Source of the DNA: an uncultured Gemmatimonadota bacterium
GTDB lineage: Bacteria; Gemmatimonadota; CAZMKB01
NCBI GenBank assembly: GCA_964654825.1
Contig: CAZZKG010000006.1
Span: forward strand, 3,478-67,477
Direction of reading: 5' to 3'
Length of the DNA: 64,000 nt
In this document: in pieces, positions 31,505 through 50,734 of the stretch
How positions within the stretch are numbered: position 1 is the stretch's first letter
Layout of the letters: every line of letters begins with the position of its first letter
The notes under the pieces: generated by a model
What the model was told of the DNA's origin: nothing
What the model saw: the letters and a program-made list of their open reading frames with translations, nothing else
The model's database searches: none
Made by a program: the position numbers and the translations under genes

Positions 31505-32642
31505 TCACCTCCATCGCACTATTTCGCCAGGTGAATTTTTTCGCTCTTTCGAGTCCTCTCGCCGTCAAGTTACTTTTGAGATCTTCACTCGTCAGAAGCG
31601 TCTCCATCGAATGTTTCATCCCCTCTACATCCGACGGATCAAAATAGAGTGCGGCATCACCCAGCACCTCGGGGAGACTCCCGCCGGTCGAGCTTGCAAC
31701 CACCGTCCCGCAGGCCATGGCTTCCATGGGAGGGAGACCGAACCCCTCGTACCAGGATGGAAAGACGAAAAGCTCCGCACCACTGTAAAGAGCGGGCATA
31801 TCCTCTTCCTTCGTATACCCAGTAAACCTCACCCGGTTGCGAAGGTCGAGTTCGTCGATGGTTCTGGTGACTTCCTCAGAACCCCAACCCAGGTGACCCG
31901 AGATGACGAGACAGACCTCCTCCCTGAGGCCTGCGAAAGCTCTGAGAAGAGTGACCAGATTCTTCCGGGGTTCAACCGTGCCGACAAAGAGGATGTAAGG
32001 TTTCCCGTCACTCACCGTCTGCCGGATCGCAGCGGCACCCACCGGCCGGTAGTGAGATGAAATACCATTATAGACAACACTGATATCATCTTCCCGCACT
32101 CCGAGATATTCGATCATGTCTTCCTTCGTCTTCAGGGAAACAGATATGAAATGATCCACTCTGTGAATTTTTTTGAGTAATTCCTGCATTTCCCACCTGA
32201 TCCTCTTCGTGCTCATCTTTTCAAAGATAAGCGGGACCAGGTCGTGAAAGGTCATTACGGATACGATTCCGCGCAATCGGTACGGCCTTTCGAGGTGTGT
32301 GGGATAATGCAGTATGTCGATGTCACTCCGCCTGATCGTTCTTCCTTTGAGATAATCTTTCAGCATGAGTCTCATGGCGGAAGGGGGATAAAACCTTCCA
32401 TCCCCACCGCCGCGGGTTCCTTCATGTGTTTTCCCTCTGACGAGCGGAAGATCACGGGGTGAAGGAAACCGCACCAGATGGAATCTCCCGAACTCTCCGG
32501 TCTCTTTGTACTTGTCCTGGAAGAGAAGGACTTCGATTCCTTCCAGGTCGGCAAGTTCCCGGATGGTGTGGTAACACACCTTGTCGATACCGGGGAGACC
32601 CGGTCCGATGATGAATTTATCCAGGGTGAATCCTATCTTCAT
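31467..32642 (-). CDS. Glycosyltransferase family 4
   Basis: C-terminal GT4 signature FVFPSWYEGFGLPPMEAMACGTVV. Confidence 0.8.
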   Translation of the reverse strand: MKIGFTLDKFIIGPGLPGIDKVCYHTIRELADLEGIEVLLFQDKYKETGEFGRFHLVRFPSPRDLPLVRGKTHEGTRGGGDGRFYPPSAMRLMLKDYLKGRTIRRSDIDILHYPTHLERPYRLRGIVSVMTFHDLVPLIFEKMSTKRIRWEMQELLKKIHRVDHFISVSLKTKEDMIEYLGVREDDISVVYNGISSHYRPVGAAAIRQTVSDGKPYILFVGTVEPRKNLVTLLRAFAGLREEVCLVISGHLGWGSEEVTRTIDELDLRNRVRFTGYTKEEDMPALYSGAELFVFPSWYEGFGLPPMEAMACGTVVASSTGGSLPEVLGDAALYFDPSDVEGMKHSMETLLTSEDLKSNLTARGLERAKKFTWRNSAMEVIDVYRKLIQEDR

Positions 32643-32648
32643 GATATC

Positions 32649-33851
32649 TCAGTATTCCCCGGACCCTCTTATGTGGATACCTTTTCCCCGAGCGTAGTCT
32701 TCGATGACCTTAACGGTTTTCTCTACACGGGCATCCCAGGTGTTCTGTCGGGCGACATCCACCCGTGCCTTGACCCTCTCAACTCCTTCACCGAGAGCTT
32801 GTTCCAGCGCTTCGATAAAATTCTCTTTTCCATTGACCATGTAGATTACATCCTCGAGATCTTCGAGAGCCGGGATATGAACGGTTACAACGGTCTTTCC
32901 GCCCGCGAGATATTCGAATGTCTTGGTGGGGAAGGCATGTTTACTCCACTCCCCCTGCAGATACGGCATGTAACAGACATCCAATCCCTTGATGTATGAC
33001 GGGAGTGCATCGAGCGGTTTCTTGCCGAGAAAATGGATATTGTCCATTTCTTTCATGACTGTGGGGATCGGATCGTAGTTGGGTCCGATCAATACCTGTT
33101 GCCAATCGGGATGTCTCCTCGAAATCTCAGTGAGCAGATCCCAGTCCATCCTGAGATTGTCGATATTCCCGGTGAATCCGATGCGGGGTCGCCGGATTGC
33201 TTCGAGCTCGGCAGGAACCGGGAGCTCCGGGCTGAGGGCCTGCTCGAAGAGTTCGGTATCGACACCTGGTGCAAAACGATAGGTACGGGGATGCAGTTTG
33301 CTCCGTACGTCGTACAACGATCTCGTTGTTGTAAATACGAGGTCCGCATTCTCGATGAATTCCCTCTCGAGACGCATGAGACCCTTTTTCCGCCGTTCGG
33401 GATTGACAAATGCCGCCACTTCGTCGTGGCAGCCGTAGATGACAAGCTTGCTCCCCAGGTCGGGAGAGGGACACACCAGAAATGGCGCATAGACCCAGAG
33501 AATCGGATCTTCGAAACCGATTTCCCTGAATACTTTCTTCAATGCCACCTCGACGCGGTGTCTGTTCAGCCTGTCGTTCGATTCGAGGATTCCGTACTGG
33601 AGGAGTAACGGCGGCGGGGTGTAGAGATACATTCCCGTGTCCATTTTCTGTACACCCGATCTCCAGTTCTTCCACTGTTTCTTGAGGTTGGGATGTAATG
33701 ACGGATGGATCAGGAACGTCGCAAGGGCGATGGGTGGGTCCACGAAAAGGACCCTGTTGTCCCGGCTCAATTTGTTCATCATGTGATGCATGAGGAGAGG
33801 GACAAAATCATACGTCACCCAGGAAAGACAGACGATGTTCTCGCCTTTCAT
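32649..33851 (-). CDS. Glycosyltransferase family 4-like
   Basis: GT-B C-terminal half PTKTFEYLAGGKTVV and HFLGKKPLDALPSYIKGLDVCYMPY. Confidence 0.65.
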   Translation of the reverse strand: MKGENIVCLSWVTYDFVPLLMHHMMNKLSRDNRVLFVDPPIALATFLIHPSLHPNLKKQWKNWRSGVQKMDTGMYLYTPPPLLLQYGILESNDRLNRHRVEVALKKVFREIGFEDPILWVYAPFLVCPSPDLGSKLVIYGCHDEVAAFVNPERRKKGLMRLEREFIENADLVFTTTRSLYDVRSKLHPRTYRFAPGVDTELFEQALSPELPVPAELEAIRRPRIGFTGNIDNLRMDWDLLTEISRRHPDWQQVLIGPNYDPIPTVMKEMDNIHFLGKKPLDALPSYIKGLDVCYMPYLQGEWSKHAFPTKTFEYLAGGKTVVTVHIPALEDLEDVIYMVNGKENFIEALEQALGEGVERVKARVDVARQNTWDARVEKTVKVIEDYARGKGIHIRGSGEY

Positions 33852-35062
33852 CTCCGGCTCCTTTCGTACAGCGAATCGACGTTCCGGATCAGGTCGTCCA
33901 TAAGTAAACCCCAGTCGAATTTTGAAGCTCCCCTGATCCCGTTCCCGGCCATTTTCTCGACTTCATCACGGTGGGAGAAGAGATCCACTACAGTATCTAC
34001 GTAGGTTTCCGTTTCAAAGGGTATGGCAACGCCACTGTCGAACTTTTTCAGGACGATCTCGGTCTCGGTCCCCCTGGTGCCGATGACAGCCAGTCCCCCG
34101 GCCATGTATTCGATCACCTTGAGCGGAAAGGCATAGATTCTCAATTGATTGGGAGGAAACAGAGCATAGCCGATATCCGCCCTCCTGATGTAATACGGCA
34201 GCTCGATGTAAGGAACGGCCTCCATCTTCGTGACCCACTCATCGATGCCGAGCGATTTGATCTGTCCGCTCAGGCTTCCGTCCGGATCGGGGCCGATCAG
34301 GATCATGTGCGCGTCCGGAATCTTCTCCCTGATCCTTCTGAATCCTTCGAGAGCAATCGAGATCCCGGAGTACCTCTCATCGAAGTTTCCGAAATAGATA
34401 ATCGTGGGAGGGTGCACTTCCTTCACCCCCCCGGCGCTGAACGCGTGATAATTGACTCCGTTGTGAATCACCACAGGTCGTATCCCGAGGTCCCTCTCCC
34501 GTTTCGCCGCGAGCAGATTCCCCGTACAGATGACGAGGTCAGCCTGCTGAATGAAGAAGTTCTCTACGGCCATGGTCACGGAAACTCTCAGGGGTCTCAC
34601 CTGAAATGCGGGAACGTAATCGATATCTCCGTAAACGATGCCGCCCACCCGCCCGAAGGCTTTGAGCACGACCGCGACGAGCATCTCCCAGGGCCCTTCC
34701 GCATAACAGAGAGAAAATGGCCTGCGGATGTTCGTGAGAAAGAGGAGGAGCATGGAGATCGCAACAAGTATTTCCGAAACGGGTCCCAGAAGACGAAACG
34801 GCCTCGCGAAGGACTGGTTGAGAATAGGATTCAGGTCATACACCTTCACAGCACCGTGACGATAGACATTGACACCAGGTATAAGTTTCCTCAGTCTTTC
34901 GGACGATCTCACCGAGACATTTCTGTGTTTGGAGATTACCACCACGCCGCCGTACCTTTCAGCAAGTGCCCTCGCGATGTGCTGACACCGCTGGTTCTTC
35001 TCGACGGTGTAATCGAGAGTGGTGATGACCAGGACATCCTCGCATCTGTTCGAACCTTTCAT
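33848..35062 (-). CDS. Glycosyltransferase family 4-like
   Basis: FPLKVIEYMAGGLAVIGT EX7E-type region. 4-nt overlaps with both neighbours. Confidence 0.65.
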   Translation of the reverse strand: MKGSNRCEDVLVITTLDYTVEKNQRCQHIARALAERYGGVVVISKHRNVSVRSSERLRKLIPGVNVYRHGAVKVYDLNPILNQSFARPFRLLGPVSEILVAISMLLLFLTNIRRPFSLCYAEGPWEMLVAVVLKAFGRVGGIVYGDIDYVPAFQVRPLRVSVTMAVENFFIQQADLVICTGNLLAAKRERDLGIRPVVIHNGVNYHAFSAGGVKEVHPPTIIYFGNFDERYSGISIALEGFRRIREKIPDAHMILIGPDPDGSLSGQIKSLGIDEWVTKMEAVPYIELPYYIRRADIGYALFPPNQLRIYAFPLKVIEYMAGGLAVIGTRGTETEIVLKKFDSGVAIPFETETYVDTVVDLFSHRDEVEKMAGNGIRGASKFDWGLLMDDLIRNVDSLYERSRR

Positions 35063-36324
35063 CTGGAAAATGTCCTTTCGATGTGCACGAGCATCTTCTC
35101 GACCATACCTTCCCAGGAATTATCTTCGGCCTCTCTGATCCTTTTCTCGACTTTCTCCTCGGTGTCTTCCGAGAGAGCGCGCTCAGCGGCTTCTATGAAC
35201 TCATCCGGAGTACCCGCTATCTCTACTATCCCTGAAAAGAGATCGATCACATCTGGGATCGGGGCCGAAATGACGGGTTTGCCGGAAGCGAAATATTCTA
35301 GAAGCTTCGTCGGGTTGATGTTGCGCGTGTTGTCATTCAATACAAAAGGGATCAGACAAATGTCGAACGCTTTCAGGTACCCGGGTAGTTCATGGTACTC
35401 TCTTCTCCCGATCATGTGGATGTTCGGTGCTTTCTTCTCGATGTGCGATGGCCCGATCAGGAGTATGTTCCAATCGGGTTTTCTCGCCGCGACGGTTTCG
35501 AGCATGTCGATGTCCGTCCTGGTGTCGACGAGACCAAAATAGCCGAGGACCGGTTTCCCGAGCCCGGCAGCGTCGGACGGTATGACGGTGGTTTCTTCCC
35601 TGGATCTCCCGAAGTGACTGCTCTCGACACCACACTGGATGAAGTGCATGTTTGGATTGTGCCTTTTTTTCCTCTTCCAGAGCTGGAGTGTGCCGGTGAA
35701 CACGAGGTCGCATTTTCGGATGAGGTTGATTTCCCTCTCCTCGGTGTCGGCCGGGAACCAGGAGAACGAGCTGTACTCATCCTGAATATCGTAGAGGACA
35801 AGATCTTCATCCAGATGCCCCACAAGCGATTCATAGGTTGGATAGTAAAACCAGAGAACCCGTCTGTTCCCCACCATCCCGTTCAGGGAAGTAAACCACT
35901 TCAGGTAATTTCTCAAAATCAGTCTGTTGAGAATCCTCACCAGAGACAATTTACTATCCCCCCATAGCATGAGGGGTCTGAAGGTGAGCAGATTGTCGTT
36001 GTGTTTATGAGCAGTGAGTGAGCCGGTTGTAGTACCTTCTTTCGCAGCACTGAGAGTCGGAATGGGACAGCAGTAGAGGACTTTGCTCTTCTCCGAAATG
36101 CGGGACTGGGTGTGGTGGTTTCTCTGCCAGAGATAATCCCAGGGTACCTGGGAGATGACGACAAACTCGAGGTCCGTGCTGCGCCTGGAAGTCACAGCCT
36201 TATGTCCCGAGGCACAAACAATCCTTCGAAACAGGGTGATCACAGAATCGATCAGCACCCACGCCGACAGGGACAGGGTTCTCAGCATGACTTCGGTTGA
36301 CGATAATTCTTTCTGCATCACCAA
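35059..36324 (-). CDS. Glycosyltransferase family 4-like
   Basis: NPTKLLEYFASGKPVIS, LGYFGLVDTRTDIDML GT-B features. Confidence 0.65.
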   Translation of the reverse strand: MVMQKELSSTEVMLRTLSLSAWVLIDSVITLFRRIVCASGHKAVTSRRSTDLEFVVISQVPWDYLWQRNHHTQSRISEKSKVLYCCPIPTLSAAKEGTTTGSLTAHKHNDNLLTFRPLMLWGDSKLSLVRILNRLILRNYLKWFTSLNGMVGNRRVLWFYYPTYESLVGHLDEDLVLYDIQDEYSSFSWFPADTEEREINLIRKCDLVFTGTLQLWKRKKRHNPNMHFIQCGVESSHFGRSREETTVIPSDAAGLGKPVLGYFGLVDTRTDIDMLETVAARKPDWNILLIGPSHIEKKAPNIHMIGRREYHELPGYLKAFDICLIPFVLNDNTRNINPTKLLEYFASGKPVISAPIPDVIDLFSGIVEIAGTPDEFIEAAERALSEDTEEKVEKRIREAEDNSWEGMVEKMLVHIERTFSR

Positions 36325-36346
36325 TTCTACTCAGGGGTGGATTATA

Positions 36347-37693
36347 TCAGATTCCGGTAACATATGTGCTTTCCTCCCCACCATCGGTGAGCCTGTTCAC
36401 CAGCTCCACTCCCTGCATCAAGGAGTGATCCATATTCCCCACCTCGTATTTCCAGCCACCGAATCTTCCCCTGGAGAAAATACTCTTTCCTTCGAAGAAA
36501 GAATGAATCGTACGCATCGCATCATCGCGTCCGAGTGAAGGAACCGGCAGGAGGGAGGGAACATCGATAAGATATGTGGAAACGATGTCTTTTCTGTCTC
36601 CATCCCGGATAATGCCGGAGTTGACAAGACCGGTCACGGTCTCTTCGGTGATTGTGTCACGATTCACCTGCTTAAACGGTGAGTGGGAAATTTCACAGAG
36701 AAGCGAATAATAATCCCCTTTCGGTGTCATGTTCGGGGAGTAATTCGAGAGGTAGGTAACCCGGTAGAATGGAGAGTTGCCTTCGGGGAAATACATCCAG
36801 TTCTTGTCGCTCGGACATGGCTGAGCCAACCCCAGACCGATGATGAAGCCGCCCGCCTTCCTGAGATTGTTTGCCGCTTCTTTTACTTCATCAGGAACAT
36901 CATCCGTGATGCCGACGAGCTCATCAGCGGGAATCGTTGTAATCAACGAACCGAACTCCGTCTCGCTCCCATTCTCGAAAGTGACCTTCCTGTCACGGAG
37001 AGAAATCTTCACGGCTCTGTGTGACAGTTTGATGCGCTCCCCGAGAACAGGTGCAAAAGCACCGAACAGGCCCCCTGTCCCGCCGTGGAGCGGAAACAGA
37101 AACAGATTGTTTGGACCCCATGAGCTGTCATCCTGACCGTAGACGATGTTTTTCATCACATGTTTGATGTCGACGACGCTCACTCTTTCCCCTATCCAGT
37201 TATAATCCATCATGGTTAAAGGATGCGACCACACTTTCTGGTTATACGGTATGAGGAAATACTTTGCGATCCCGTCGCCGAAGACCATCCTGATCCAATC
37301 TTCGAAGTTGTTGGGTTTCCCGCCTTTCTCTCTCGCCTCGATCAGGCCAAGGATGCAATCGAGGACTACCTCTCTCGGCAGGAAGTGAAAATTGTTCTGA
37401 AAAGGATATCTCACGAACTTCCCCATCAGGCGTACCCAGCTTTCCCGCTCGTGGGAAACGACATCTTCAGCCAGGAGTTTCTTGATGATTTCATCGTAGT
37501 ATGGATAGTGAGAAAACATGATGTGGCCGCCGATATCCCAGGTGAAACCCTTGTCGTCCACGAAACTCGCCGACAGACCACCCACATAGGAGTTCATCTC
37601 GTACATATCCCAGTCTTCGTGGCCGATTTCGTTAAGCCGATAACCGGCACCCAGCCCTGTCGGTCCGGCTCCAAGAACAACAATTCTCTTCAT
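36347..37693 (-). CDS. FAD-dependent oxidoreductase of the amine-oxidase superfamily, UDP-galactopyranose-mutase-like
   Basis: Rossmann motif MKRIVVLGAGPTGLGAGYRL, C-terminal GRFGGWKYEVGNMDHSLMQG. Position within the glycan locus suggests a sugar-nucleotide mutase role (inference). Confidence 0.5.
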   Translation of the reverse strand: MKRIVVLGAGPTGLGAGYRLNEIGHEDWDMYEMNSYVGGLSASFVDDKGFTWDIGGHIMFSHYPYYDEIIKKLLAEDVVSHERESWVRLMGKFVRYPFQNNFHFLPREVVLDCILGLIEAREKGGKPNNFEDWIRMVFGDGIAKYFLIPYNQKVWSHPLTMMDYNWIGERVSVVDIKHVMKNIVYGQDDSSWGPNNLFLFPLHGGTGGLFGAFAPVLGERIKLSHRAVKISLRDRKVTFENGSETEFGSLITTIPADELVGITDDVPDEVKEAANNLRKAGGFIIGLGLAQPCPSDKNWMYFPEGNSPFYRVTYLSNYSPNMTPKGDYYSLLCEISHSPFKQVNRDTITEETVTGLVNSGIIRDGDRKDIVSTYLIDVPSLLPVPSLGRDDAMRTIHSFFEGKSIFSRGRFGGWKYEVGNMDHSLMQGVELVNRLTDGGEESTYVTGI

Positions 37694-37791
37694 CTGATTT
37701 CCTTCCACCTGCCTTTTTGTGTATGTTCGACTGATCTCACACTGGTATCGGTATGTCTATCATCCATTCCCATCCTGCAGCAGATCCGGGA

Positions 37792-39975
37792 TCAGTCGAC
37801 ATAACCAAGTGCCTTCAGGAGTTCTCTCGTTTCTTTGTCCATCTCCGGAATTTCTTCGGTTTCCCGGAGCAGTGCCGGGAGGGAGCCTTTCCACTGCAGA
37901 AGACTGTCCCTCATCCCGGTGATCTGCAAATCTCCCGATTCCTTCAGGTCGACTTCTTCCCCCGGATCGGTGGAGATCCGGTACAGCTCATCCCGGCCAT
38001 CGGATGACCAGATGTATTTCAACGTGTCATTTCGAACCGACTTTAGTCTCCGGTCGAAAAAACTCAAGAATTCCGAATCGACGCCTTTCGCTTCAGCCCA
38101 GCTCTGGACTCTCTTGAATTGATCCCTGGGACTCATGTATTCTGAGTATGCGGTCACCCGCGTATCCTCTCCCCTGATGCTGGACAGCAGGTTCTTGCCG
38201 GCAACGGTGTAACCTACATTGTCATTCGACAGACTTGCGACATCGAGAATCGTGGTGAATACATCGACGGACTGTGCGATTGCTTTTATCCTCACACCGC
38301 TCGGGACGAGGGAAGGATACCGTATGATGAGCGGGATCCTGAGAGTCGTATCGTACAAGCTCAACTGGTGATCCAGAAGATTGTGTTCTCCGATGTTTTC
38401 CCCGTGATCCGCGGTCAGTATCAGGAAAGTGTTTTCCAGGTATCCCTGATCGCCCAGGTATTTCACCAACTCCCCGATCCTCATGTCGAGATACGCGATT
38501 TCCGCCTCATAGAGCCCCCGGAGAGCACTGATTTCTTCGGCCGAGAGAGCCAGACCCTCTTTCGATTCATCCGCAAGCATCCGGTAGAGGGTACGAACAT
38601 TCATCTTCCGCATTTTCATTACGGTTTCACTGTCCTCGATGAATTTTCTTCTCCAATCTTCGGGTGGATTATACAAGAGATGCGGTTCGAAGTAGTTTAC
38701 GAACATGAAAAACGGTTTCGAGCTATCATGTCTGCGTTCCAGCCAGCCCTGAATAACTTCGTTTGTGGATCTTGCCCCGGCATCCGCTCTGTCACAGAGG
38801 GAAAGGAGGTGGCCCTTGATCTGACTGCAGGTGGTCGGGAACCTGGACGACCCCTTCCACATGCCGTAGAAATCATTGAATCCCTGGACGAGGTTTGTTG
38901 CCGGACCAACCAGTGCGTTATTCGAGATCGCCACCGTCTGATATCCGTCATCACGGAGAAGTTCTGCAACCGTAGTGATGGGATCATCCAGGTACAGATG
39001 CTCCCAGCTGGCACCGTGGCTGCTCGTATAAAGCCCAGTGAACATCGAGCAGTGAGTGGGAACGGTCCATGGCGCGGTAGCAACCATATTCTGGAAGAGT
39101 GCACCCTCCTCCGCGAGACCATCGATGTTCGGTGAAGTCTCTATCGTGTGCCCATAACAGGAGAGAAAGTCACTCCTGCAGGTATCCATCACGATGAGGA
39201 GGATATTGGGCTTCCCGTTCGAGACAGCCGAAGAAGGGTGGACATCGCCCCCCATATACACAAGCGCCGTTACTACGAGGAGCAGGACAATCCCGCCGAC
39301 CCCCTCGATCTTCCCGACGGCCGCCTGGAATGGACGTGAACTGAAGATCTTGAAACACAGATAGTAGGCCGGGAAGAACAGGATCACAAGTCCTGCATTA
39401 TAGATACCTGCAGGCGGCTCGAAGAAAATCGTAGTGTCGTAAAGGTAATGGTTGATGAGTCTTAAAAAAAGAAAGCCCAGTTGGATCACTACGATCGATG
39501 AGAGGAAAAAAGGGAACGGTTTACCGATCTTCCGACTGAGACACTGTAACATAAGAAAAACGAGGAGTGCGGCGACGATGGACAATACGAACAGAAGCGC
39601 TCCGCCCCCGATCCGCCCCATCAGATAAGGAGTCCTCCGGATCAGGACGGCCGTGTCGAAGAAGACGAGAAGAGAAGTGAAGAGCGTAAGAGCCGTATGA
39701 ATTCTGCTGTCCCGGCGAGCAAGGCCGCCGGTAACAACAGGGTAGAGAAGCGTACCTGCTAAGAGAGCGAAGAGCACATAGGCAACGAAAGCCCGTGACA
39801 CGCCTGAGACAGGAATTACGTCAAATGTGAGGAGACTGAAGAGCCCTTCGATGATGGCGAGGACAACAGCACCGATCAGCCAGTAAAAAATGTGGCATCG
39901 CAGGTCATAGTGCTTGTTGATCTTCAATTCCTCAGTCATAGAGCGTATCCTCCCTGGTATGACTCGTTTCTGCAC
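37792..39975 (-). CDS. LtaS/EptA/OpgB-like membrane phosphotransferase (polytopic N-domain + sulfatase-fold domain, Thr nucleophile); C-terminal ...LLKALGYVD tail
   Basis: ILLIVMDTCRSDF metal site. APWTVPTHCSMFTGLY occupies the position of the sulfatase C-x-P-x-R motif with Thr/His instead of Cys/Arg. ~9 TM helices at the N-terminus. Confidence 0.6.
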   Translation of the reverse strand: MQKRVIPGRIRSMTEELKINKHYDLRCHIFYWLIGAVVLAIIEGLFSLLTFDVIPVSGVSRAFVAYVLFALLAGTLLYPVVTGGLARRDSRIHTALTLFTSLLVFFDTAVLIRRTPYLMGRIGGGALLFVLSIVAALLVFLMLQCLSRKIGKPFPFFLSSIVVIQLGFLFLRLINHYLYDTTIFFEPPAGIYNAGLVILFFPAYYLCFKIFSSRPFQAAVGKIEGVGGIVLLLVVTALVYMGGDVHPSSAVSNGKPNILLIVMDTCRSDFLSCYGHTIETSPNIDGLAEEGALFQNMVATAPWTVPTHCSMFTGLYTSSHGASWEHLYLDDPITTVAELLRDDGYQTVAISNNALVGPATNLVQGFNDFYGMWKGSSRFPTTCSQIKGHLLSLCDRADAGARSTNEVIQGWLERRHDSSKPFFMFVNYFEPHLLYNPPEDWRRKFIEDSETVMKMRKMNVRTLYRMLADESKEGLALSAEEISALRGLYEAEIAYLDMRIGELVKYLGDQGYLENTFLILTADHGENIGEHNLLDHQLSLYDTTLRIPLIIRYPSLVPSGVRIKAIAQSVDVFTTILDVASLSNDNVGYTVAGKNLLSSIRGEDTRVTAYSEYMSPRDQFKRVQSWAEAKGVDSEFLSFFDRRLKSVRNDTLKYIWSSDGRDELYRISTDPGEEVDLKESGDLQITGMRDSLLQWKGSLPALLRETEEIPEMDKETRELLKALGYVD

Positions 39976-40023
39976 CCGTGAGCACAGGAGAGACTAGAGG
40001 GCACCATTGCCCCGATTACCCCA

Positions 40024-41868
40024 TCAGTGAATGTATCCGAGGCTTCTGAGCCTTTCGCTCTCTTCAGGATCCAGGGGAACCACATCCCGAAGTCCCACGC
40101 GTTCCGTCCAGGTCAGGAGAGCATCCTCGAGTGAATCCGTGACGACCGTGTCACCCTGGGTAGCCGCGGGCAGGCACTCGATAGTCCTCTCCCCACTCTC
40201 CAGATCCATTCGGAGTATCGAGCTTTTGCTCCTCACCGAAACGAGGCCACACGGACCACAGTCGGAAAAGGCGAATCGATTTTCTTCCGGCGTCGACAGC
40301 AGAGAGGTCCCCTCGAGACCCTGTGGAACGGGCAACATAACAATTTGAAGAATGGTCGGCATGATGTCAACAATCTCCGCAAGAGGGCCGTCTCCGGTGC
40401 CGCCCAGCCATCCGTTCGGATCGACCATGATGAGCGGCACATTCAGTACCTCTCTGCGTAAACCCCCGTGCATGAAATAGGATCCGTTCTCTCCGAAGTA
40501 CTCTCCGTGGTCGGCTACGACGACGACGAGCATGTTTTTGAGCCTCCCCATCGCAGATAGTTCAGCAAGAAGTCTGCCTAACTCCCTGTCAGCATAAGAG
40601 ATTTCCCCACCATACAGAGCCCAGGCGTGCTGCTTCTCCCGCTCGGTAATCCCTATCGTGTTGTCGAAGATCTTCTGGGGTGTAGCCAGGTAATCGTAAG
40701 GTCTGAAAATTCCTTCGAAGCCGGGGTCATACAGGTCCGTGAATGGAGGAGGCGGGAGATAGGTGAAATGCGGATCGAAATAATGGACCCAGAGGAATAC
40801 ATTTCCATCCATTTTCCTCAACCAGCGGAGAGCACAATCCGTGGTTTCGGATGCCTTTCTCTCCTGCAGGCTCCGGAAGAAGACAGCGAAGGAACCGGGA
40901 GCGAGTTTCTTTAAAAACCGCCACGTGAACTCACCCAGGGATGTTCTCATAAATCCTTCCATGGAAGTGAACACATCATCGTAGGCCATAAACCCGGCGT
41001 TGAGTCCGCACACATCATGAGACAGGGAAGATCCGCTCAACACTGCAGCCGACCCGTACCCGTATCGCGCGAGCAGTGCCGGAAGGGTCAGCGTACCTTC
41101 TTTGAGCTGTATCCCGTTTGTTCTTATCCGGTGAGACGACGGGTACAGTGAAGTCAGCAGCGAGGCGTGAGACGGAGCCGTAAATGGACTCTGGCTGACG
41201 GCTTCGGTGAACAGGACTCCGGTTCGGGCGAGGCTGTCGAGCGTTGGTGTTTTGAAGATCGGATTGCCGTAGCATCCGAGTGCGTCCTTTCGAACCGTAT
41301 CGAGGCTTATGATCAGGATATCCTTCCGGTCCCCATTTTCCGCCGCCGGAAAGTCCTTAGCGTTTCGGGAAGGAAGAATAGAACACAGGATGGTCATTAG
41401 AACGAGGAGGACGAGGCAGACGGGTACAAACGATCGGGGAGTAACTCTTTGAAGCGGGCTCTTTTGCAGTATGAGAAAGAGGAAAAGTGCGGAAACCATC
41501 AGAAGAGCAGTGGCGAAGACACTTTTCCAGTCCAGCAGACCGATACCCTTCAGAATATCCAGATGAACCCAGAGACCTGTGTAGAAAAGGAAAACAAGCA
41601 CCAGATTGAAACTGATGAAAAACACAAACCTGCCCTCGGAACCGGCTTTTTCTCCTACGGGCAAGAGGAGAAACAACACACCGATCACAGCCCCCGGTAT
41701 CATTGAGAGAAGAGCCGGAACAAGGATCAACCCGGTGAAAGGGTAACAACGTAGTACTTCGGGCGGCCCGAAGGAGTGGAAGACAGTGATCCTCGTGATG
41801 AGTTCTCCTAAAAAAGCAAGTACCCAGATAAGTACTCCGGCAATCAGAAAGTAGAAGCTTCTCCTCAC
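40024..41868 (-). CDS. LtaS/EptA/OpgB-like membrane phosphotransferase (sulfatase-fold, Thr nucleophile); C-terminal ...RLRSLGYIH tail
   Basis: ILIISLDTVRKDALGCYG, SPFTAPSHASLLTSLYPSSH (Thr/His at the sulfatase Cys/Arg positions), multi-TM N-domain. Confidence 0.6.
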   Translation of the reverse strand: MRRSFYFLIAGVLIWVLAFLGELITRITVFHSFGPPEVLRCYPFTGLILVPALLSMIPGAVIGVLFLLLPVGEKAGSEGRFVFFISFNLVLVFLFYTGLWVHLDILKGIGLLDWKSVFATALLMVSALFLFLILQKSPLQRVTPRSFVPVCLVLLVLMTILCSILPSRNAKDFPAAENGDRKDILIISLDTVRKDALGCYGNPIFKTPTLDSLARTGVLFTEAVSQSPFTAPSHASLLTSLYPSSHRIRTNGIQLKEGTLTLPALLARYGYGSAAVLSGSSLSHDVCGLNAGFMAYDDVFTSMEGFMRTSLGEFTWRFLKKLAPGSFAVFFRSLQERKASETTDCALRWLRKMDGNVFLWVHYFDPHFTYLPPPPFTDLYDPGFEGIFRPYDYLATPQKIFDNTIGITEREKQHAWALYGGEISYADRELGRLLAELSAMGRLKNMLVVVVADHGEYFGENGSYFMHGGLRREVLNVPLIMVDPNGWLGGTGDGPLAEIVDIMPTILQIVMLPVPQGLEGTSLLSTPEENRFAFSDCGPCGLVSVRSKSSILRMDLESGERTIECLPAATQGDTVVTDSLEDALLTWTERVGLRDVVPLDPEESERLRSLGYIH

Positions 41869-43556
41869 CGGTTTCCCTCCTTTACAAATATTTCGACGCC
41901 AGGCATGAATGTGTCTCTGTATGTCGGATCGAGTCTCCCGTACAATCCACTGTGCATGAAATCCCTCCGATAGTCAGCCACCCGCCTGTACCCGTAGATC
42001 CCCGACCGCAGCCCGTCGATGAATTCCCTCCCCTCTTCGGTCCCTTCGCTGCCCCGTTCGAACCCGACGGTGATGAGCCTCGAAGTGATAATGACATCCG
42101 GTTGCTGCTCTTTGAGCCACGTACGTGTAAATTGATCGGGTCTCATGAGGGACAGGTCGTAGGTTTCACCCGAGAGAGGAGGTGTGAAGTGAGTGGCGGC
42201 GATCGTGCTGCCCACCGCGACATTTTCACTGACCCATCTCAGACCCTCATCGAGTGTCGAACGACCCCGGGGCATATACCGTTCGATCGACCAGGTAAAC
42301 ACACCGGTATACACGATGACAGCTGCCGCGACGAGGCAGGCCAGTTTTCCTGCTACTCCCCGTCGTCTGGTGAGGAGAGAAAATGCATATCCTGCTGTTA
42401 TGCAGAATCCGATCACAAGCGGTATGTAGTATCTGAGAAAAACCACTTTCATCACCGACGTGAGCAGAAAATAGGGAATTGCATAGAACAGGATCCAGAC
42501 AAAGCCCTCTTCTTTCTTCCAGATGCCTGCGACAATCCCCACGAGGGAAACGAGGTACAACGGCAGCCCGAGGGAGAAGGGAAATGCAGCGAGAATCTGA
42601 TAGAGAATACGATGGTAGACGATACCATCCCCGGCCAGGTCGAAACCAGGGTGCCCCTTTTCTGATACATGGAACATCTCATACGCGAAATCGGTACTGA
42701 ACCGCTCGTAATCGAGGGCTATGAACGGTGAGCAGGCCAGAAAAATGAGAATCGCCAGCAACACGGTCCTGATCGGACCCTTTCCGAGAAAGCTGGCGAG
42801 GATGAACCGCCTACCCTTCCTGAACAACATCGGCAGAATCGACAGGACGAGCGCTCCGTTGTACTTGACCGAGGCCGCGATTCCGGCGGCCACCCCCACC
42901 AGTACCGAGGAACCGCGTTTTTGTCCGGCCTCTCCCCTGACACCCGCGTAAAGCGCGAGCGTCATGAAAAAGGTCATGAGGACCTCCTGTTTGATATAAT
43001 GCGACTCGAGGACGTGCAGGGGTGTGACCGCAAGTGCAAGTGAAGCGAACGCGGCTGCCCGCCGGGAAAAGAGTCTTTTCACGAGGAAGTACAGAAGGAT
43101 CACCGTGAGCACTCCGATCAGGGCAATGGAACACCTGCCGAGCAGGTACAGATCGGCCTGGGCGGCATCGAACGAGAGCTTGAATGCAGTGAGTGTCGGT
43201 ACCTTTCCCGAGACGATCGAACCCAAGGCGAAGGGCACGAAGTGGACTGAATAGTAAATCACCACGAGCCCGCAGAGATAATAGAAGATGAAAGAAGGGT
43301 AGTGAAAAAAATGCGGATTCAGGTCACCGGTAGACACCATCTTCACCACCCTGCTCATCACCCTTGTCTCATCGATGTGGTAATGGAGCGGGAGACCGAA
43401 ATCAATCCCGTATATCCTCAACAGGAGAGCCACGAGAGCGATCAGAGACAGAACAATATAATCCCCTCGACCTGTCCTTCCTTCTTCTGCTCTGTATCGT
43501 TCGGAGTTCAACACGTGATAAACCTCAATCTGTCGATTCCCGTTCTGTCTATCCAT
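41865..43556 (-). CDS. Glycosyltransferase family 39 (ArnT/PMT_2-like)
   Basis: Multi-TM protein with YHIDETRVMS...FFHYPSFIFY ArnT-like N-terminus and a periplasmic C-terminal domain. Start chosen at MDRQNG, since the track start overlaps the upstream LmbE gene by ~250 nt. Confidence 0.5.
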   Translation of the reverse strand: MDRQNGNRQIEVYHVLNSERYRAEEGRTGRGDYIVLSLIALVALLLRIYGIDFGLPLHYHIDETRVMSRVVKMVSTGDLNPHFFHYPSFIFYYLCGLVVIYYSVHFVPFALGSIVSGKVPTLTAFKLSFDAAQADLYLLGRCSIALIGVLTVILLYFLVKRLFSRRAAAFASLALAVTPLHVLESHYIKQEVLMTFFMTLALYAGVRGEAGQKRGSSVLVGVAAGIAASVKYNGALVLSILPMLFRKGRRFILASFLGKGPIRTVLLAILIFLACSPFIALDYERFSTDFAYEMFHVSEKGHPGFDLAGDGIVYHRILYQILAAFPFSLGLPLYLVSLVGIVAGIWKKEEGFVWILFYAIPYFLLTSVMKVVFLRYYIPLVIGFCITAGYAFSLLTRRRGVAGKLACLVAAAVIVYTGVFTWSIERYMPRGRSTLDEGLRWVSENVAVGSTIAATHFTPPLSGETYDLSLMRPDQFTRTWLKEQQPDVIITSRLITVGFERGSEGTEEGREFIDGLRSGIYGYRRVADYRRDFMHSGLYGRLDPTYRDTFMPGVEIFVKEGNR

Positions 43557-44290
43557 TCGAGGTACCGAGAGACAGAAAAACAGAGAAATGCTTCGGCATA
43601 CCCGGATGATCCCATCTCGAGCGCTCTCCTCTTCGAGAGTGCCAGGGAAGTCCGCATGTAGTCGACCTGTTCGAGCTGAGATGCAAAACAGAGGAGCGCC
43701 TCCCGTTTTGCCCGCGCGTAAGGTGAAATGTCCAGATACAGATTGGGTGGTAGAGGCGTCCACACTTCATATCCGAGAATGAGGGTCTCCGGGGCCGATG
43801 ACTGAATGATCCTCTTCAGTAACCGGTTGGTCTCTATGTGATCAACGTGGTTGTCGAAGAACCAGGGGAGGAAGATGAGTTCGGGTGCAAAATCTCTCAG
43901 GAGCTGTTTCAATCGATTCAGTATCCGGGGCTCAGGTCTGAGGAGCGTTTCCGGAGCTGACAAGTGTTCCGTCTCTGTCACTCCCAGTATCTCGAGCGCA
44001 CGAGCCGATTCCGCCTTCCTGATCCGTTCCACCTCCGACCTGTCATCCATCCGGGGGATACCCTCCCTACCGTCGGTGAGATAGATAACCTTGACTCTGT
44101 GTCCCCGTTCGAGCTGCATCAGAATGGTCCCACCCATACCGATCACATCGTCATCGTAGTGCGGAGACAGAACCAGAGTCCTGCCTCCCGGAAGTTCATT
44201 GATGACCACCCGTCCACGGCGATTGCACAGCTGCAGAATGGATCTCTTGTACCGGTTAAAAATTATATTACCGGGCATTCCCCTCTCCAC
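43508..44290 (-). CDS. PIG-L/LmbE family N-acetylglucosaminyl deacetylase
   Basis: LVLSPHYDDDVIGMGGT and HVDH motifs of the LmbE-like zinc deacetylases. Confidence 0.8.
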   Translation of the reverse strand: MERGMPGNIIFNRYKRSILQLCNRRGRVVINELPGGRTLVLSPHYDDDVIGMGGTILMQLERGHRVKVIYLTDGREGIPRMDDRSEVERIRKAESARALEILGVTETEHLSAPETLLRPEPRILNRLKQLLRDFAPELIFLPWFFDNHVDHIETNRLLKRIIQSSAPETLILGYEVWTPLPPNLYLDISPYARAKREALLCFASQLEQVDYMRTSLALSKRRALEMGSSGYAEAFLCFSVSRYLEWIDRTGIDRLRFITC

Positions 44291-44969
44291 GTAAAACGAA
44301 ATCGGAGGGTGTCATGATCCCCTCATCACAGGAGATGAATGACTCATACCAGCCGCGCCCACCCCCCGCCATTGCGCTCCCGTAAGCCATAGCCGATTGC
44401 GAAAGCTGAAGTTCTCCCCCGCAGCCGAGTGCATGGAGCGCCAGGAATTTTGATCGGACGGCCTGATCGACACAAAGCTGATATTCGGGGAGCACAAGCA
44501 TTCTTGACTGGTAATAAAAACTCCCGAGGTGAAGCTTCTTTTCCAATTCATCGATCTTCGGCTTCTCATCCGCGGTGAGCGGAAACGGATAGAACAGGAT
44601 CGCTTCGTGGGGGACTGCCGGGCTTCCATCCTGTTCCCAGCAGCTCAACCGGGGAGTAACAATTACGGTGCCCAGCTTACGGATCGCCGTCTTTTCGCGA
44701 TCAGTGTAAGGTTTCTCTACCACCGCGAGACACTCCCCATCCACCGCTGCGTGCCCCGCCAGAAGTCCCCCACAGCCTGATATTACCTCCCGCACGTCCC
44801 TTCCGTATACTATCAGGATGGTCCCGTGACCTGGCTTGAGAGGAGTGGGGATCACCACGAGGTTCAGGGGTCGGGGTAAGATGTTTCCGGTGATCCTGCC
44901 AATACCGGCAATCGCCCTTTTGATAAATGCTTTTGCCATGAATCTACACCAATCTCGAGATAGATTCAT
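44268..44969 (-). CDS. Hypothetical soluble protein in polysaccharide locus
   Basis: 233-aa ORF, no recognised domain. Overlaps neighbours by ~25 nt on each side. Confidence 0.3.
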   Translation of the reverse strand: MNLSRDWCRFMAKAFIKRAIAGIGRITGNILPRPLNLVVIPTPLKPGHGTILIVYGRDVREVISGCGGLLAGHAAVDGECLAVVEKPYTDREKTAIRKLGTVIVTPRLSCWEQDGSPAVPHEAILFYPFPLTADEKPKIDELEKKLHLGSFYYQSRMLVLPEYQLCVDQAVRSKFLALHALGCGGELQLSQSAMAYGSAMAGGGRGWYESFISCDEGIMTPSDFVLRGEGNAR

Positions 44970-46164
44970 CGATTCGTAAGCCGGCAGTCTTCGTGTAGAC
45001 TTCGCCGAGCTGCTGCATGTGAATCTCCGATGTAAATGTACGCCGCACTACTTCTCTGCCGTTTTTTCCCATCCGGTCTGCTCCCGCTCCGTCCTCGAGG
45101 ATCCGGACAAGTGCCCGGGCGAGTGCGGGTGAATCACCGTAAGGTACGAGTAAACCGGTGGTCTCTTCCTGCACCAGCTCGGGTATCCCGCCGAGCCTGG
45201 ATGCGACGACAGGTCTCCCGGCCGCCATCGCCTCGAGGATTACGAGAGGGCAATTTTCCTTGACGACTGATGGCAGAACCACGACCCTCGAGGCCCCGAA
45301 AAGAGGACGGAGTCTCTCCTCGTCGAGCTGACCGTGAAACTTCACTGCTCCGCCCACGCCAAGCTCACTGGCGGATCGTTGAAGATCGTTCATCTCAGGA
45401 CCGACGCCTACGATGTCGAGAATCGCGCTGGGCACTCCATCGAGGACTTCACGAAAAGAACGGAGGAGGTGATCAACCCCCTTACTCGGATACAGGGAAC
45501 CTACGAAAAGGATACTCCGTGAGGCACCGGGAAGTATACCTCCTTCGAAATAATGAGTATGTACAAAGTTGGGGACAAGTACCGGTTCGATCCCGAAGTG
45601 AGTGACGTTCTCGGCGAGTGCCCTGCTCGGCGTAATGAGAGTCCAGTCCTCCCGTGAGAAGAGCCTCCTGACGAGCTTGCGGGACGGGACCTGGGCGATG
45701 TACTTACTGATCGGGATACATCCTTCACTGACGCAGACGGTCCCGAAGGACCAGGGGCAGACGAGCCCGTTCTTTCTCACACCTCTCTCATTCGGGCACA
45801 CGATCCGTATGTCGTGTGCGGTCTGAACCAGAGGAGGACCTTTGGAACAGGCCAGATATACTGTGTGCGAGTAGAGACAGTTCCCCTGAACATGAATGAG
45901 ATCGGGTCTCTCTTTGTCTATCACCTTCCGCAGCATCCGAAAGAGCTTCGGATTGAACAGATGCTGTTTCATCCTCCCGGTGAGAGCTCCATTACCGTGG
46001 AAGGGGAAGATTGTGACTTTGCCCTCTTCAGACGAGTCTCCCTGATTGAACGTGAAAAGAGAGACCTCAACTCCCCTTTCCCTGAGCATCCTCGTGAGCT
46101 CCATCCTGTATCGGTTCGCTCCACCGCGGACGTCCGCGAAATCGTGGAACATCAGCACTTTCAT
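44944..46164 (-). CDS. Glycosyltransferase family 4
   Basis: GGANRY N-terminal motif, VVLPSVVKENCPLVILEAMAAGRPVVASRLGGIPE C-terminal GT4 signature. Confidence 0.8.
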   Translation of the reverse strand: MKVLMFHDFADVRGGANRYRMELTRMLRERGVEVSLFTFNQGDSSEEGKVTIFPFHGNGALTGRMKQHLFNPKLFRMLRKVIDKERPDLIHVQGNCLYSHTVYLACSKGPPLVQTAHDIRIVCPNERGVRKNGLVCPWSFGTVCVSEGCIPISKYIAQVPSRKLVRRLFSREDWTLITPSRALAENVTHFGIEPVLVPNFVHTHYFEGGILPGASRSILFVGSLYPSKGVDHLLRSFREVLDGVPSAILDIVGVGPEMNDLQRSASELGVGGAVKFHGQLDEERLRPLFGASRVVVLPSVVKENCPLVILEAMAAGRPVVASRLGGIPELVQEETTGLLVPYGDSPALARALVRILEDGAGADRMGKNGREVVRRTFTSEIHMQQLGEVYTKTAGLRIDESISRLV

Positions 46165-47624
46165 ACCGACCTCCGTCCAAAAACGTAGGAGGTGATCTTT
46201 AACAACGGCTCCTTGATGAACCGGTTTATCTCATCCCGGTCGTAAACCCCGAGCACCTTCAACATGTAACAGTAGGGTACGAGGGCAAGGAGTATTCTGA
46301 GGGGCAGAAACAAGCCGTCGAGGAGGATGAGCACAACCAGCATAGTGGAAAGTGCCAGGAGCGGCCGGGGTAACATACCGAGGTAATCGATTTTGTGGCC
46401 GAGAACTTTCCTCACGAAGTAAATCCGTATAAAAAGATCGATAACGGTCGAGTTGAGCGAAACCCATGCGGCACCGATATGCTGATACTTTGGAATGAAA
46501 ATGAAGTTGAGGACAATGTTGATGCACATGTTTACGGCGACGATGGGGGCAAAACTCGACAGGAGATTCGACTGGAGGATGATAACTCTCATCGGTGTGG
46601 TGAAGAAGAGCAGCGCGCACGCCCAGCTGAGTATGAACAGTACCCGGGCGGATTCCTCGTACTGTTGTCCGAAGATGAACAGCGTGATCTCGCGGTGATA
46701 GAGGATGAGGACGCTGAAAACCGGCAGCGCCATGGTCAGGAAGAACTTCTGCAGTTTCTGATAAATGAGGACCAGTCTTTCCTTCGCGTGTACATAGAGA
46801 GCGGAAATAGTCGGCTGCATCGCGACGTTTATCAGAACACCGGCCATGGCGATGTGTTCGAGAATCTTGTACGGAGCGGCATAAATGCCCACTGACTCTT
46901 CACCGACCATCTTCGAAAGCATGAAGAAATCAACGCGGATATGGATCATCATGATGAGACCGAGTACCGCGAAAAACATGGCATCCTTGAATATTTTCCT
47001 GCAGAAGACAGTGTCGATCTCGGGTTTGAAAGAGGGAACCACCCGTTTAACGAACCACATGAGGATGATCAGTTTCACCCCACTCCAGAAGCCGAAGGCG
47101 AGCAGGATGGTTTTAATACCGAATCCGAGCCAGATCAGAACGATGCCCGAGGCTGCTGGGAGAAAGCCGACGGCCACCTCGATTGCGGAGGTTATGTCCA
47201 TGCGCTCGTGGGCCTTCAGCATCGAGATGAAGGGACCGGACAGTGTAGAGAAAATCAGGAAGGGTATTCCGGCATAGAAGAGCCCTACGATCTCACCCCG
47301 GTAGCCGACTGCATGGATGAGAAGAATCATGAGGACGGAAACGATTATTGATGTGATTATCTTGATACCGAGGATGTTCCTGATGTACTTGCTGGAACGA
47401 GAGTAATCCCTCGCCACGTCCCTCACCGTGAGCGTGTCGAGCCCGCAGTCACTGAAGATGCCGAAGAAAGCGAGAAACAGAAAGACGAGGGACCATTGAC
47501 CGAACCCTTTCGTCCCGAAGTAACGAGCTGCAATAGCAACGAAGGTGATGCTGATGACCTTTGTGAGGATCTGGGCGATTTGGAGGGAGACGACATTTCT
47601 CAGTATGGTAAATCTTTTGTCCAT
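46161..47624 (-). CDS. wzx: Polysaccharide flippase (Wzx, MOP superfamily)
   Basis: 12-14 TM helices. N-terminus KVISITFVAIAARYFGTKGFGQWSL... typical of PF01943/PF13440 flippases. Confidence 0.7.
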   Translation of the reverse strand: MDKRFTILRNVVSLQIAQILTKVISITFVAIAARYFGTKGFGQWSLVFLFLAFFGIFSDCGLDTLTVRDVARDYSRSSKYIRNILGIKIITSIIVSVLMILLIHAVGYRGEIVGLFYAGIPFLIFSTLSGPFISMLKAHERMDITSAIEVAVGFLPAASGIVLIWLGFGIKTILLAFGFWSGVKLIILMWFVKRVVPSFKPEIDTVFCRKIFKDAMFFAVLGLIMMIHIRVDFFMLSKMVGEESVGIYAAPYKILEHIAMAGVLINVAMQPTISALYVHAKERLVLIYQKLQKFFLTMALPVFSVLILYHREITLFIFGQQYEESARVLFILSWACALLFFTTPMRVIILQSNLLSSFAPIVAVNMCINIVLNFIFIPKYQHIGAAWVSLNSTVIDLFIRIYFVRKVLGHKIDYLGMLPRPLLALSTMLVVLILLDGLFLPLRILLALVPYCYMLKVLGVYDRDEINRFIKEPLLKITSYVFGRRSV

Positions 47625-47643
47625 TCCACTCTGGGGGGAAGAT

Positions 47644-49320: not shown

Positions 49321-49404
49321 TCTCAACTGCTCCCCTGATAAAAATTTTCCCCCTCCCTCCGATGAAGGCAGAGGGGGAAGTGATACGAGAACTCTTTCCC
49401 GCAC

Positions 49405-50591: not shown

Positions 50592-50734
50592 TCGTAGACA
50601 ATGACAGCGGGTAGTCGAGGTTCCTGGCCAGGCGAGACGACGCAAGGAGTATCTTTAGTTACTCCGAGGAGTAGCAACGCAGCCAGGGGACTTGAGAGTC
50701 GCCTGAATTGGTGATGAATTTCTGGGACGGGACA

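Follow-up and report, generated by a model that had tools for sequence, protein, structure and literature searches.

Are two neighbouring genes that carry the sulfatase fold in fact sulfatases and, if not, what chemistry would they perform? The question is raised by a stretch of 64,000 nucleotides from an uncultured Gemmatimonadota bacterium (contig CAZZKG010000006.1 of assembly GCA_964654825.1; the whole stretch is called the window here), in which genes A (37792..39975) and B (40024..41868) lie next to each other inside a polysaccharide cluster and encode open reading frames (ORFs) of 727 and 614 amino acids (aa), respectively. All features of the cluster given below are on the minus strand, and the residue numbering of A follows the 727-residue ORF throughout. 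Each product combines an N-terminal membrane domain, with seven transmembrane (TM) helices in A and about five in B, with a sulfatase-fold domain that is predicted to be periplasmic and to use a threonine as nucleophile. The initial annotation of the window had read the two proteins not as sulfatases but as phosphotransferases of the LtaS, EptA or OpgB type that act with a lipid donor.

The sequences of A and B were compared by phmmer with all PDB sequences, and a family hidden Markov model (HMM) was built from the catalytic domains of A, B and 120 relatives. Four references were aligned to this model and checked over the aligned range: Pseudomonas arylsulfatase (PAS, 1hdh), S. aureus LtaS (2w5q), human ENPP1 (6wet) and MCR-1 (9nww). 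In the phmmer alignments, Thr304 of A and Thr230 of B fall on the cysteine that sulfatases carry as formylglycine (FGly), and His308 and His234 on the arginine of the signature (4upl, SPICGSSRMSTYTG, and also 4upi); the segment APWTVPTHCSMFTGLY of A pairs with SPICGSSRMSTYTGRY of SpAS2 (4upl), and B aligns likewise. The family HMM places PAS Cys51 on Thr304 and Arg55 on His308. The motifs T304-V-P-T-H308 of A (39052..39066) and T230-A-P-S-H234 of B (41167..41181), which the initial annotation had put at the C-x-P-x-R position, are thus aligned there with 4upl, 4upi and 1hdh. In an AlphaFold2 model of A, Thr304 stands at the N-terminus of a helix (residues 304-313) that follows strand 292-298, which is where the superfamily typically has its nucleophile.

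The metal ligands are intact in both proteins (Asp264, Thr304, Asp523 and His524 in A; Asp190, Thr230, Asp453 and His454 in B), and so is a further histidine, His432 of A and His367 of B. In the family HMM, Asp13 of PAS corresponds to Asp264 of A, which is also the position of Glu246 in MCR-1, and Asp14 of PAS to Thr265, a position at which the phosphonate monoester hydrolases (PMHs) have Gln. The strands concerned, M263-D269 of A (MDTCRSD; 39169..39189) and L189-D195 of B (LDTVRKD, with Asp190 as the ligand; 41284..41304), precede the nucleophile motifs as had been stated, and the translations match. Further downstream, His211, Asp317 and Asn318 of PAS correspond to the invariant His432 of A (motif E-P-H; 38680..38682), Asp523 and His524, the latter two opening the second metal-ligand block D523-H524-G-E...H531...H536 (38368..38409). 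The counterparts in B are Asp190, Thr230, His234, His367, Asp453, His454 and His467, and its second block, D453-H454-G-E-Y-F-G-E-N-G-S-Y-F-M-H467 (40468..40512), lies near that of MCR-1 (DHGESLGENGVYLHG), with the histidine one residue later. The sulfate-binding residues are exchanged: Lys113 of PAS is replaced by Asn352 in A, His115 by Ala354 and Lys375 by His536/Gln537. Taken together, the residue set supports a metal-dependent phosphoryl-transfer enzyme with a threonine nucleophile, which would work like the known Thr-type enzymes.

A Cys/Ser-x-P-x-R motif elsewhere in the domain, as was also looked for, has no alternative position in the alignments with 4upl, 4upi and 1hdh. Likewise, no gene for a formylglycine-generating enzyme (FGE, PF03781) or for a radical-SAM/SPASM anaerobic sulfatase-maturating enzyme (anSME) was found, adjacent or otherwise, among the approximately 46 genes that were judged plausible in the 64-kb window. 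Because Thr and His occupy the signature and the sulfate-binding Lys/His/Lys set is lost, the alignments support the conclusion that A and B cannot be formylglycine sulfatases, and on this point the initial annotation was right. That Thr-type PF00884 proteins are not FGly sulfatases is, as a general point, already in the literature: in the SulfAtlas paper, 30 of the 59 seed sequences of PF00884 carry Thr and are not to be regarded as FGly sulfatases, and the oxidation of Thr would yield a ketone instead of FGly (PMC5066984). In A and B, such a domain is joined to lineage-specific membrane domains and lies in a conserved polysaccharide cluster.

The exchange is shared by a large group of proteins. 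In the alignment of the 120 relatives of A (122 rows with A and B), the nucleophile column holds Thr in 88 and Ser in 34, and the column four residues on is His in 119. When 240 relatives of A and B were considered, Asp264, Arg267, His432, Asp523, His524 and Gly525 were conserved in 100%, Thr304 in 85% (the rest being mostly Ser, with one Cys noted), His308 in 86%, His320 and His536 each in 95%, and His531 in 92%; B itself deviates at the position of His531, which is Asn, and its last His is displaced by one residue. A and B are members of a large and conserved clade, not two sulfatases in decay. At least 594 species-representative genomes (one genome per species, 600 pattern matches considered) encode a relative, the hosts being Chloroflexota, Planctomycetota, Acidobacteriota, Myxococcota, Gemmatimonadota, Nitrospirota, haloarchaea, Bathyarchaeia and Woesearchaeota. 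Public databases name the clade "sulfatase" or "arylsulfatase A-like enzyme", and NCBI names some of the relatives "sulfatase-like hydrolase/transferase". The relatives often occur in tandem arrays, with up to seven paralogues at one locus (L072), and in a large sub-branch close to B the proteins continue into C-terminal TPR repeats. At another locus, L040, the residue at +4 is His, Thr or Leu in four TM-fused relatives.

To which family the catalytic domain belongs is answered in the same sense by several kinds of comparison. PF00884 (Sulfatase) matches A at 1.6e-47 and B at 2.1e-38, and PF01663 (Phosphodiest) matches at 1e-12 and 1.6e-13 (48.8 and 51.5 bits, with a cut-off of 23), i.e., 133-163 bits for the former family versus 49-52 bits for the latter; in A, the SGSH_C sulfatase C-terminal subdomain is also recognized (1.3e-8). 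The best NCBIfam models are the arylsulfatase PRK13759 (168 bits for A, 126 for B), PehA and choline sulfatase, which together give 117-168 bits with A and 91-126 bits with B. Against the family HMM, PAS scored 110 bits, MCR-1 49, ENPP1 29 and LtaS 28, the C-terminal block of LtaS alone being aligned. The AlphaFold2 model of full-length A (pLDDT 85, pTM 0.87) was compared with the PDB by Foldseek, and the best matches were SpAS1, ArPMH, SpAS2, choline sulfatase and RlPMH, with E-values from 3e-21 to 5e-20. The catalytic domain dominates this comparison: the top 50 were all soluble FGly sulfatases (S1) or PMHs, and LtaS and EptA were absent from them. Since Pfam, NCBIfam, the family HMM and Foldseek all favour it, the catalytic domain is assigned by descent, as judged from sequence and model, to the group of FGly arylsulfatases and PMHs. 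The clade with T/S-x-P-x-H is a Thr-nucleophile branch inside the sulfatase/PMH fold, not part of the LtaS/EptA branch, and no characterized member of it was found in the literature.

Membership in the LtaS, EptA, CptA, MCR or YejM families was ruled out with NCBIfam, where scores of 14.5-35.5 bits stood against cut-offs of 404-1200: LtaS gave 22.7 (cut-off 970), EptA 19.2 (660) and 14.5-23.6 (561), CptA 26.5 (404-900) and MCR-12 about 18 (1200). EfAS, a Mn-arylsulfatase with a weak NCBIfam match, proved to be a Cys/FGly enzyme. Of the assignment to the LtaS/EptA/OpgB type, the Thr nucleophile and an MCR-1-like ligand set thus stood; the membership did not, by NCBIfam, the family HMM or Foldseek, and the relation is one of functional analogy only.

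The longest ORF of A begins with a GTG at 39975, and an ATG at 39939 (Met13) is preceded by the Shine-Dalgarno sequence GGGAGGA. Because of this sequence, and because a database copy of the protein (P0001, 100% identical) has 715 aa, the true start is probably Met13, which would make the protein 12 residues shorter, with 715 aa. The membrane domain of A (residues 1-245; 39241..39975) was modelled by AlphaFold2 with TM helices at residues 25-50, 56-82, 88-114, 125-150, 153-178, 189-211 and 226-243, and the loops assigned to the cytoplasm hold 11 Lys/Arg as compared with three to four in the loops assigned to the outside. That of B (residues 1-170; 41359..41868) has approximately five helices by hydropathy and the same orientation by the positive-inside rule, with a weaker charge bias. 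The N-terminal domains are thus polytopic, as had been claimed, and the topology predicted for both proteins is N-in with a periplasmic catalytic domain. Among nine orthologues of A, the TM domain is 40% identical and the catalytic domain 61%, and the predicted periplasmic loops contain the invariant polar motifs R113-x-T115-x-Y117 and R172..N175-H176-Y177..P188-A189..N193, which, going by this conservation, exceed what a plain anchor needs. A match to PbgA was taken as a hint, and nothing more.

The enclosing cluster (29552..51610) consists of 16 genes of a Wzx-type polysaccharide system, in the order Bac_transf, Wza-like, N2, Wzx, glycosyltransferase (GT) of family GT4, an unassigned gene, PIG-L deacetylase, GT-C, B, A, a FAD amine-oxidase-like gene, four GTs, and N1. 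The GT-C glycosyltransferase (PMT_2/ArnT-like; 41865..43763; PF13231 at 3.1e-15, PF02366 at 3.6e-13) lies directly upstream of B, its stop sharing four bases with the start of B; its product has at least eight TM segments and probably acts at the periplasmic face. N1 (650 aa; 29552-31504) has approximately five TM helices and a PF01663 domain, and N2 (586 aa; 47644-49404) is a soluble PF01663 protein, so that the cluster encodes four proteins of the alkaline phosphatase (AP) superfamily, of which A, B and N1 are membrane-anchored. Besides Wzx and GT-C, only A, B and N1 are polytopic in this cluster, and no recognizable Wzy-like or Wzc-like protein is encoded in it, despite the presence of an initiating phosphoglycosyl transferase, Wzx and a Wza-like exporter. 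The gene order is kept at approximately 50% protein identity in three loci (L081-L083) of Candidatus Glassbacteria-like genomes, completely in L081 and up to the contig ends in the shorter L082 and L083 (GCA_046760905.1). The succession GT-C, B, A is conserved, the orthologues of B adjoining those of A in all three, and both N1 and N2 are kept as well. A fourth pair of A and B orthologues comes from contigs of equal length.

What, then, would A and B do? The reading that is favoured, and which we would put at about even chances, is that they are periplasmic metalloenzymes that transfer phosphoryl groups via a Thr nucleophile and thereby decorate or process the polymer of the cluster. The catalytic domains, placed at the outer face of the inner membrane together with GT-C, would meet the lipid-linked repeat unit flipped by Wzx, or the nascent polymer; one or the other is the most likely substrate because the genes directly follow GT-C inside a conserved Wzx-type cluster. 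A divalent metal on Asp264, Thr304, Asp523 and His524 would lower the pKa of Thr304, and the resulting alkoxide would attack a phosphate (di)ester to form a covalent phospho-Thr intermediate, while His432 and His536, possibly aided by a second metal, would stabilize the transferred phosphoryl and the leaving group. The intermediate might then be resolved by a glycan hydroxyl, which would be transfer, or by water, which would be hydrolysis. The favoured role would be the addition of a phospho-substituent from a membrane phosphodiester donor, as by GacH, OpgB and BcsG, and the next most likely one the removal or trimming of such substituents. The analysis itself shows the motifs, their conservation, the fold, the predicted topology and the synteny. 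What we infer beyond this differs in strength: strongly, that the chemistry is that of phosphate and not of sulfate; moderately, that it concerns the polymer of the cluster; and weakly, that there is a lipid donor and that the reaction is transfer and not hydrolysis.

Several observations weigh against this proposal. The periplasmic location of the catalytic domains is a predicted one, and no obvious gene for the synthesis of a phospho-donor is present in the cluster. By sequence and fold, the nearest enzymes are sulfate and phosphonate hydrolases and not transferases, and the literature on the T/S-x-P-x-H clade yielded no biochemical data. The TM domain of A appears to be an orphan and may be a mere anchor: its profile, searched against 1.84 billion representatives, matched its own cluster alone, and hhalign found no similarity among the TM domains of A, B, N1 and MCR-1 (best, A with B, P 0.02). 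Foldseek with a TM-only model of A (pLDDT 80) gave no match either. In a sample of 80 genomes, the N-terminal region could be scored for 85 family ORFs; approximately 45 of them lack a predicted membrane helix, and many of those begin a mere 10-20 residues ahead of the first strand, i.e., without a signal peptide. Many relatives, possibly most, are thus soluble, which makes it probable that the ancestral activity of the family was a soluble hydrolase or mutase-like reaction; with so many members lacking TM helix and signal peptide, the family is not intrinsically dependent on membrane lipids. The step from a polytopic N-domain to a lipid donor, taken in the initial annotation, is thus a weak one, and because of this, and because the proteins do not belong to the families named, transfer from a lipid donor is kept here as a proposal.

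The same observations lend themselves to another explanation, which is unlikely and nonetheless the closest competitor, namely that A and B are purely hydrolytic, membrane-tethered phosphodiesterases or pyrophosphatases, with the TM domain a mere anchor and no transfer to a glycan. Such enzymes could possibly cleave a polyprenyl-(pyro)phosphate linkage, trim phosphodiester-linked substituents or scavenge phosphate. The nucleophile block is indeed the motif of the NPP phosphodiesterases, PF01663 matches above its gathering score, and the nearest structures are all hydrolases; many relatives are soluble, the TM domain of A has no conserved counterpart, and the L040 relatives lie among genes for glycoside hydrolases and a lyase. 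What a hydrolase would not explain well is the place of the genes in a biosynthetic operon, right behind a GT-C and conserved at approximately 50% identity, nor the TM domain of A, which is 40% identical among orthologues and keeps its invariant polar motifs in predicted periplasmic loops.

The lack of a recognizable Wzy or Wzc, in a cluster that has a phosphoglycosyl transferase, Wzx and Wza and whose polytopic proteins are so few, invites a further, improbable idea: that A and B act as a polymerase or ligase. The threonine would attack the pyrophosphate of the undecaprenyl-pyrophosphate-linked repeat unit, free undecaprenyl phosphate and pass the glycosyl-1-phosphate to a hydroxyl of the chain or anchor, and the product would be a phosphodiester-linked polymer made by an LtaS-like or LCP-like logic. 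The joint conservation of four AP-superfamily enzymes fits, and LtaS is a precedent for polymerization via phospho-Thr. The scheme is wholly inferential, however; the polymerase could be GT-C or be encoded outside the cluster, and we know of no AP-superfamily enzyme that uses a polyprenyl-pyrophosphate glycan as donor.

A role as scaffold or regulator in the membrane, devoid of catalysis, for which a case has been made with PbgA/YejM, is very improbable for A and B. One of two tandem paralogues may be inactive, and B has both the Asn at the position of His531 and the displaced last His; the metal ligands, the nucleophile and His432/His367 are nevertheless intact in both proteins and invariant across the 240 relatives. 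Hardly credible at all is a true sulfatase or sulfuryl-transferase in which Thr, or some novel modification, takes the place of FGly. Sulfatases do give the best matches in Pfam, NCBIfam, the PDB and the fold comparison, and the L040 relatives adjoin a heparinase-II/III-like lyase, but the equivalents of Arg55, Lys113, His115 and Lys375 of PAS, which bind sulfate and act on the FGly diol, are all exchanged, oxidized Thr would be a ketone, the window holds no FGE or anSME gene, and AP-superfamily enzymes with Ser or Thr are known to have trace sulfatase activity only.

In N1 and N2, the nucleophile position is occupied by Ser and that of Arg/His by Trp (S-x-x-x-W...T-G...H-G), and N2 has no significant sequence relative among solved structures. 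A common C-terminal tail, L-x-x-L-G-Y or more fully [ED]-x-x-[KR]-x-x-L-[KRQ]-[AGS]-L-G-Y-[VIL]-x, is found in A (ETRELLKALGYVD; 37795..37833; in the model a helix, residues 714-722, followed by G-Y-V-D), B (ESERLRSLGYIH; 40027..40062), N1 (DEIKERLKALGYLD; 29555-29596) and N2 (EEIRKTLQGLGYLS; 47647-47688). It is present in 94 of the 120 relatives of A, haloarchaeal ones included. In the 80 genomes (3552 ORFs in all), it occurs in 74 of 129 family ORFs, in nine of 16 neighbouring PF01663 ORFs and in about 18 of some 3400 others, several of which have the look of AP-type fragments; PF01663 partners adjoin family members in 12 of the 80 loci. Because the C-terminal region of the FGly arylsulfatases, PMHs and choline sulfatases mediates oligomerization (PMC5870055), the simplest idea, by analogy, is that the tail would serve docking or oligomerization, possibly between the PF00884 and PF01663 families. 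That A, B, N1 and N2 assemble via the tail into a membrane machine that links or decorates repeat units by phosphodiester bonds, in place of the missing Wzy, is a speculation with little probability; if true, such a machine would mark out a Thr/Ser branch that is widespread in bacteria and archaea, has its origin inside the sulfatase/PMH fold and possesses a dedicated partner family.

The neighbourhoods of TM-fused members in other genomes are varied. They adjoin an AlgX-like SGNH protein (L016), GH39 and heparinase-II/III-like genes (L040), GT2, GT87 and DegT (L085), or a PF01663 partner (L084), and no homologues of the GT-C or of the TM domains of the window were found near family members at E < 1e-5 in the 80 genomes. 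At L086 (3700-10121), the TM-fused P0104 directly follows a major facilitator superfamily (MFS) transporter and a fusion of AMP-binding, PP-binding and acyltransferase domains. This pair looks like the LplT/Aas system of lysophospholipid recycling, and is a single, anecdotal link to the turnover of membrane lipids.

Of the other genes of the cluster, four encode glycosyltransferases of the GT4/GT1 type (35059-36324, 33848-35062, 32649-33851 and 31467-32642). A protein of 233 aa without a Pfam match (44268-44969), just upstream of the PIG-L deacetylase gene and overlapping it, contains the segment LIVYGRDVREVISGCGGLL, which by eye looks like the PIG-L/LmbE motif without its metal-binding His-Pro-Asp-Asp; the protein is kept in L081 and could be a degenerate PIG-L paralogue. 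Outside the cluster, the window encodes a second GT-C (PMT_2; 11598-13235, plus strand) and a secreted protein with a lamin-tail domain and a CHU_C type-IX-secretion sorting domain (5052-6878, minus strand), the latter fitting an organism of the FCB group or related to the Gemmatimonadota. The window is recognizably bacterial by its genes for UvrB, RelA/SpoT, TsaB/E, DnaK, HtrA, trigger factor, ClpP/X and Lon, and its DnaK is 89% identical to that of a Candidatus Glassbacteria metagenome-assembled genome (MAG), the top-scoring named match being a Gemmatimonadales MAG. An ORF of 502 aa (52718-54226, minus strand), antisense to dnaK (52385-54298, plus strand), matches PF10712 at 3.5e-131; we take this family, "NAD-specific glutamate dehydrogenase", to be the known shadow ORF opposite dnaK, and the ORF is not a real gene.

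The consequences reach beyond this locus. Counting the genes of the clade as sulfatases inflates the estimates of sulfated-glycan degradation in environmental genomics, and the clade offers a natural experiment on the exchange of the nucleophile and of the charge-binding residues in the alkaline phosphatase superfamily. Moreover, the presence of three membrane-anchored AP enzymes and one soluble one suggests that the surface polymer of the Candidatus Glassbacteria-like bacteria is heavily phospho-modified or phosphodiester-linked.

How do A and B compare with the systems that are known? They are most similar to the FGly arylsulfatases (AS), PMHs and choline sulfatases (SpAS1 4upi, SpAS2 4upl, ArPMH 4uph, RlPMH 2vqr, SmCS 6fny and EfAS 9koq), with best phmmer values of 1e-31 to 1e-25. 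The two-subdomain fold, including the SGSH_C-type C-terminal subdomain, is shared with this group, and so are a first strand with D-x-x-R-x-D...YG and an H-G at +16/+17 after the nucleophile, together with an Asn at +21 in B. His as the fourth metal ligand (D-H-G) is shared with the PMHs, SpAS2 and EfAS, and His432 of A with PAS (His211). Unlike these enzymes, A and B have Thr in place of Cys/FGly and His in place of Arg, have lost the Lys/His (or Tyr/Thr) pair of the third strand, and carry N-terminal polytopic membrane domains and the conserved L-x-x-L-G-Y tail; the FGly-type PMH/AS enzymes also have a Lys at D+13 (the alignment with 4upl shows "GEK"), for which His is substituted here.

The NPP enzymes resemble A and B in the first half of the active site, where D-G/T-x-R is followed by the nucleophile block, and the family motif T-x-P-x-H-x-S-x-x-T-G-L-Y-P-x-x-H-G agrees column by column with T-F-P-N-H-Y-S-I-V-T-G-L-Y-P-E-S-H-G of ENPP1. 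In B, His246 (+16) and Asn251 (+21) follow Thr230 as in NPP and PMH, and A has Glu-His instead of the Asn. This Asn, which is present in B and in 79 of 120 relatives of B, stands at a position that we take to be the phosphoryl-oxygen ligand of NPP (and PMH). In contrast to the NPPs, the C-terminal subdomain of A and B is sulfatase-like, and the D-x-x-x-H motif of the second zinc is not evident, the family having E-P-H432; His536 could be a metal ligand of the second site, as far as its position in the alignment suggests.

With EptA and MCR-1, A and B share an N-terminal TM domain, a periplasmic AP-superfamily domain and the Thr nucleophile. The first strand, D-T-x-R-A-D-H, aligns in the family HMM with E246-T-A-R-A-D-H of MCR-1, and D523-H-G-E-x-x-G-E-x-x-x-x-x-H536 with D465-H-G-E-S-L-G-E-N-G-V-Y-L-H478, the spacing from D to H being 13 in both. 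In MCR-1, Zn1 is bound by Glu246, Thr285, Asp465 and His466, and Zn2 by His395 and His478 (PMC5175174). The differences from EptA and MCR-1 are the motif, T-x-P-x-H instead of G-T-S-T, the TM domains, which are without profile similarity, and the acceptor, which for A and B would be a polysaccharide and not lipid A. As read from these alignments, the active site is a mosaic, with an NPP-like first half and an MCR-1/EptA-like second half on the scaffold of the sulfatases and PMHs.

LtaS, GacH and OpgB, finally, are built on the same overall plan: a polytopic part in the membrane is joined to an AP-superfamily domain outside the cytoplasm, which has a Thr nucleophile and a metal site of the type [E/D]-T-D-H. 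The TM counts differ (five in LtaS and 11 in GacH). In LtaS, the same fold serves polymerization via a phospho-Thr intermediate. GacH is a polytopic membrane protein that, by means of Thr530 in its extracellular AP-superfamily domain, moves glycerol-phosphate from phosphatidylglycerol onto a cell-wall polysaccharide, and its gene is part of a polysaccharide cluster whose polymer is thereby decorated. By this analogy, GacH is the closest functional precedent for A and B.

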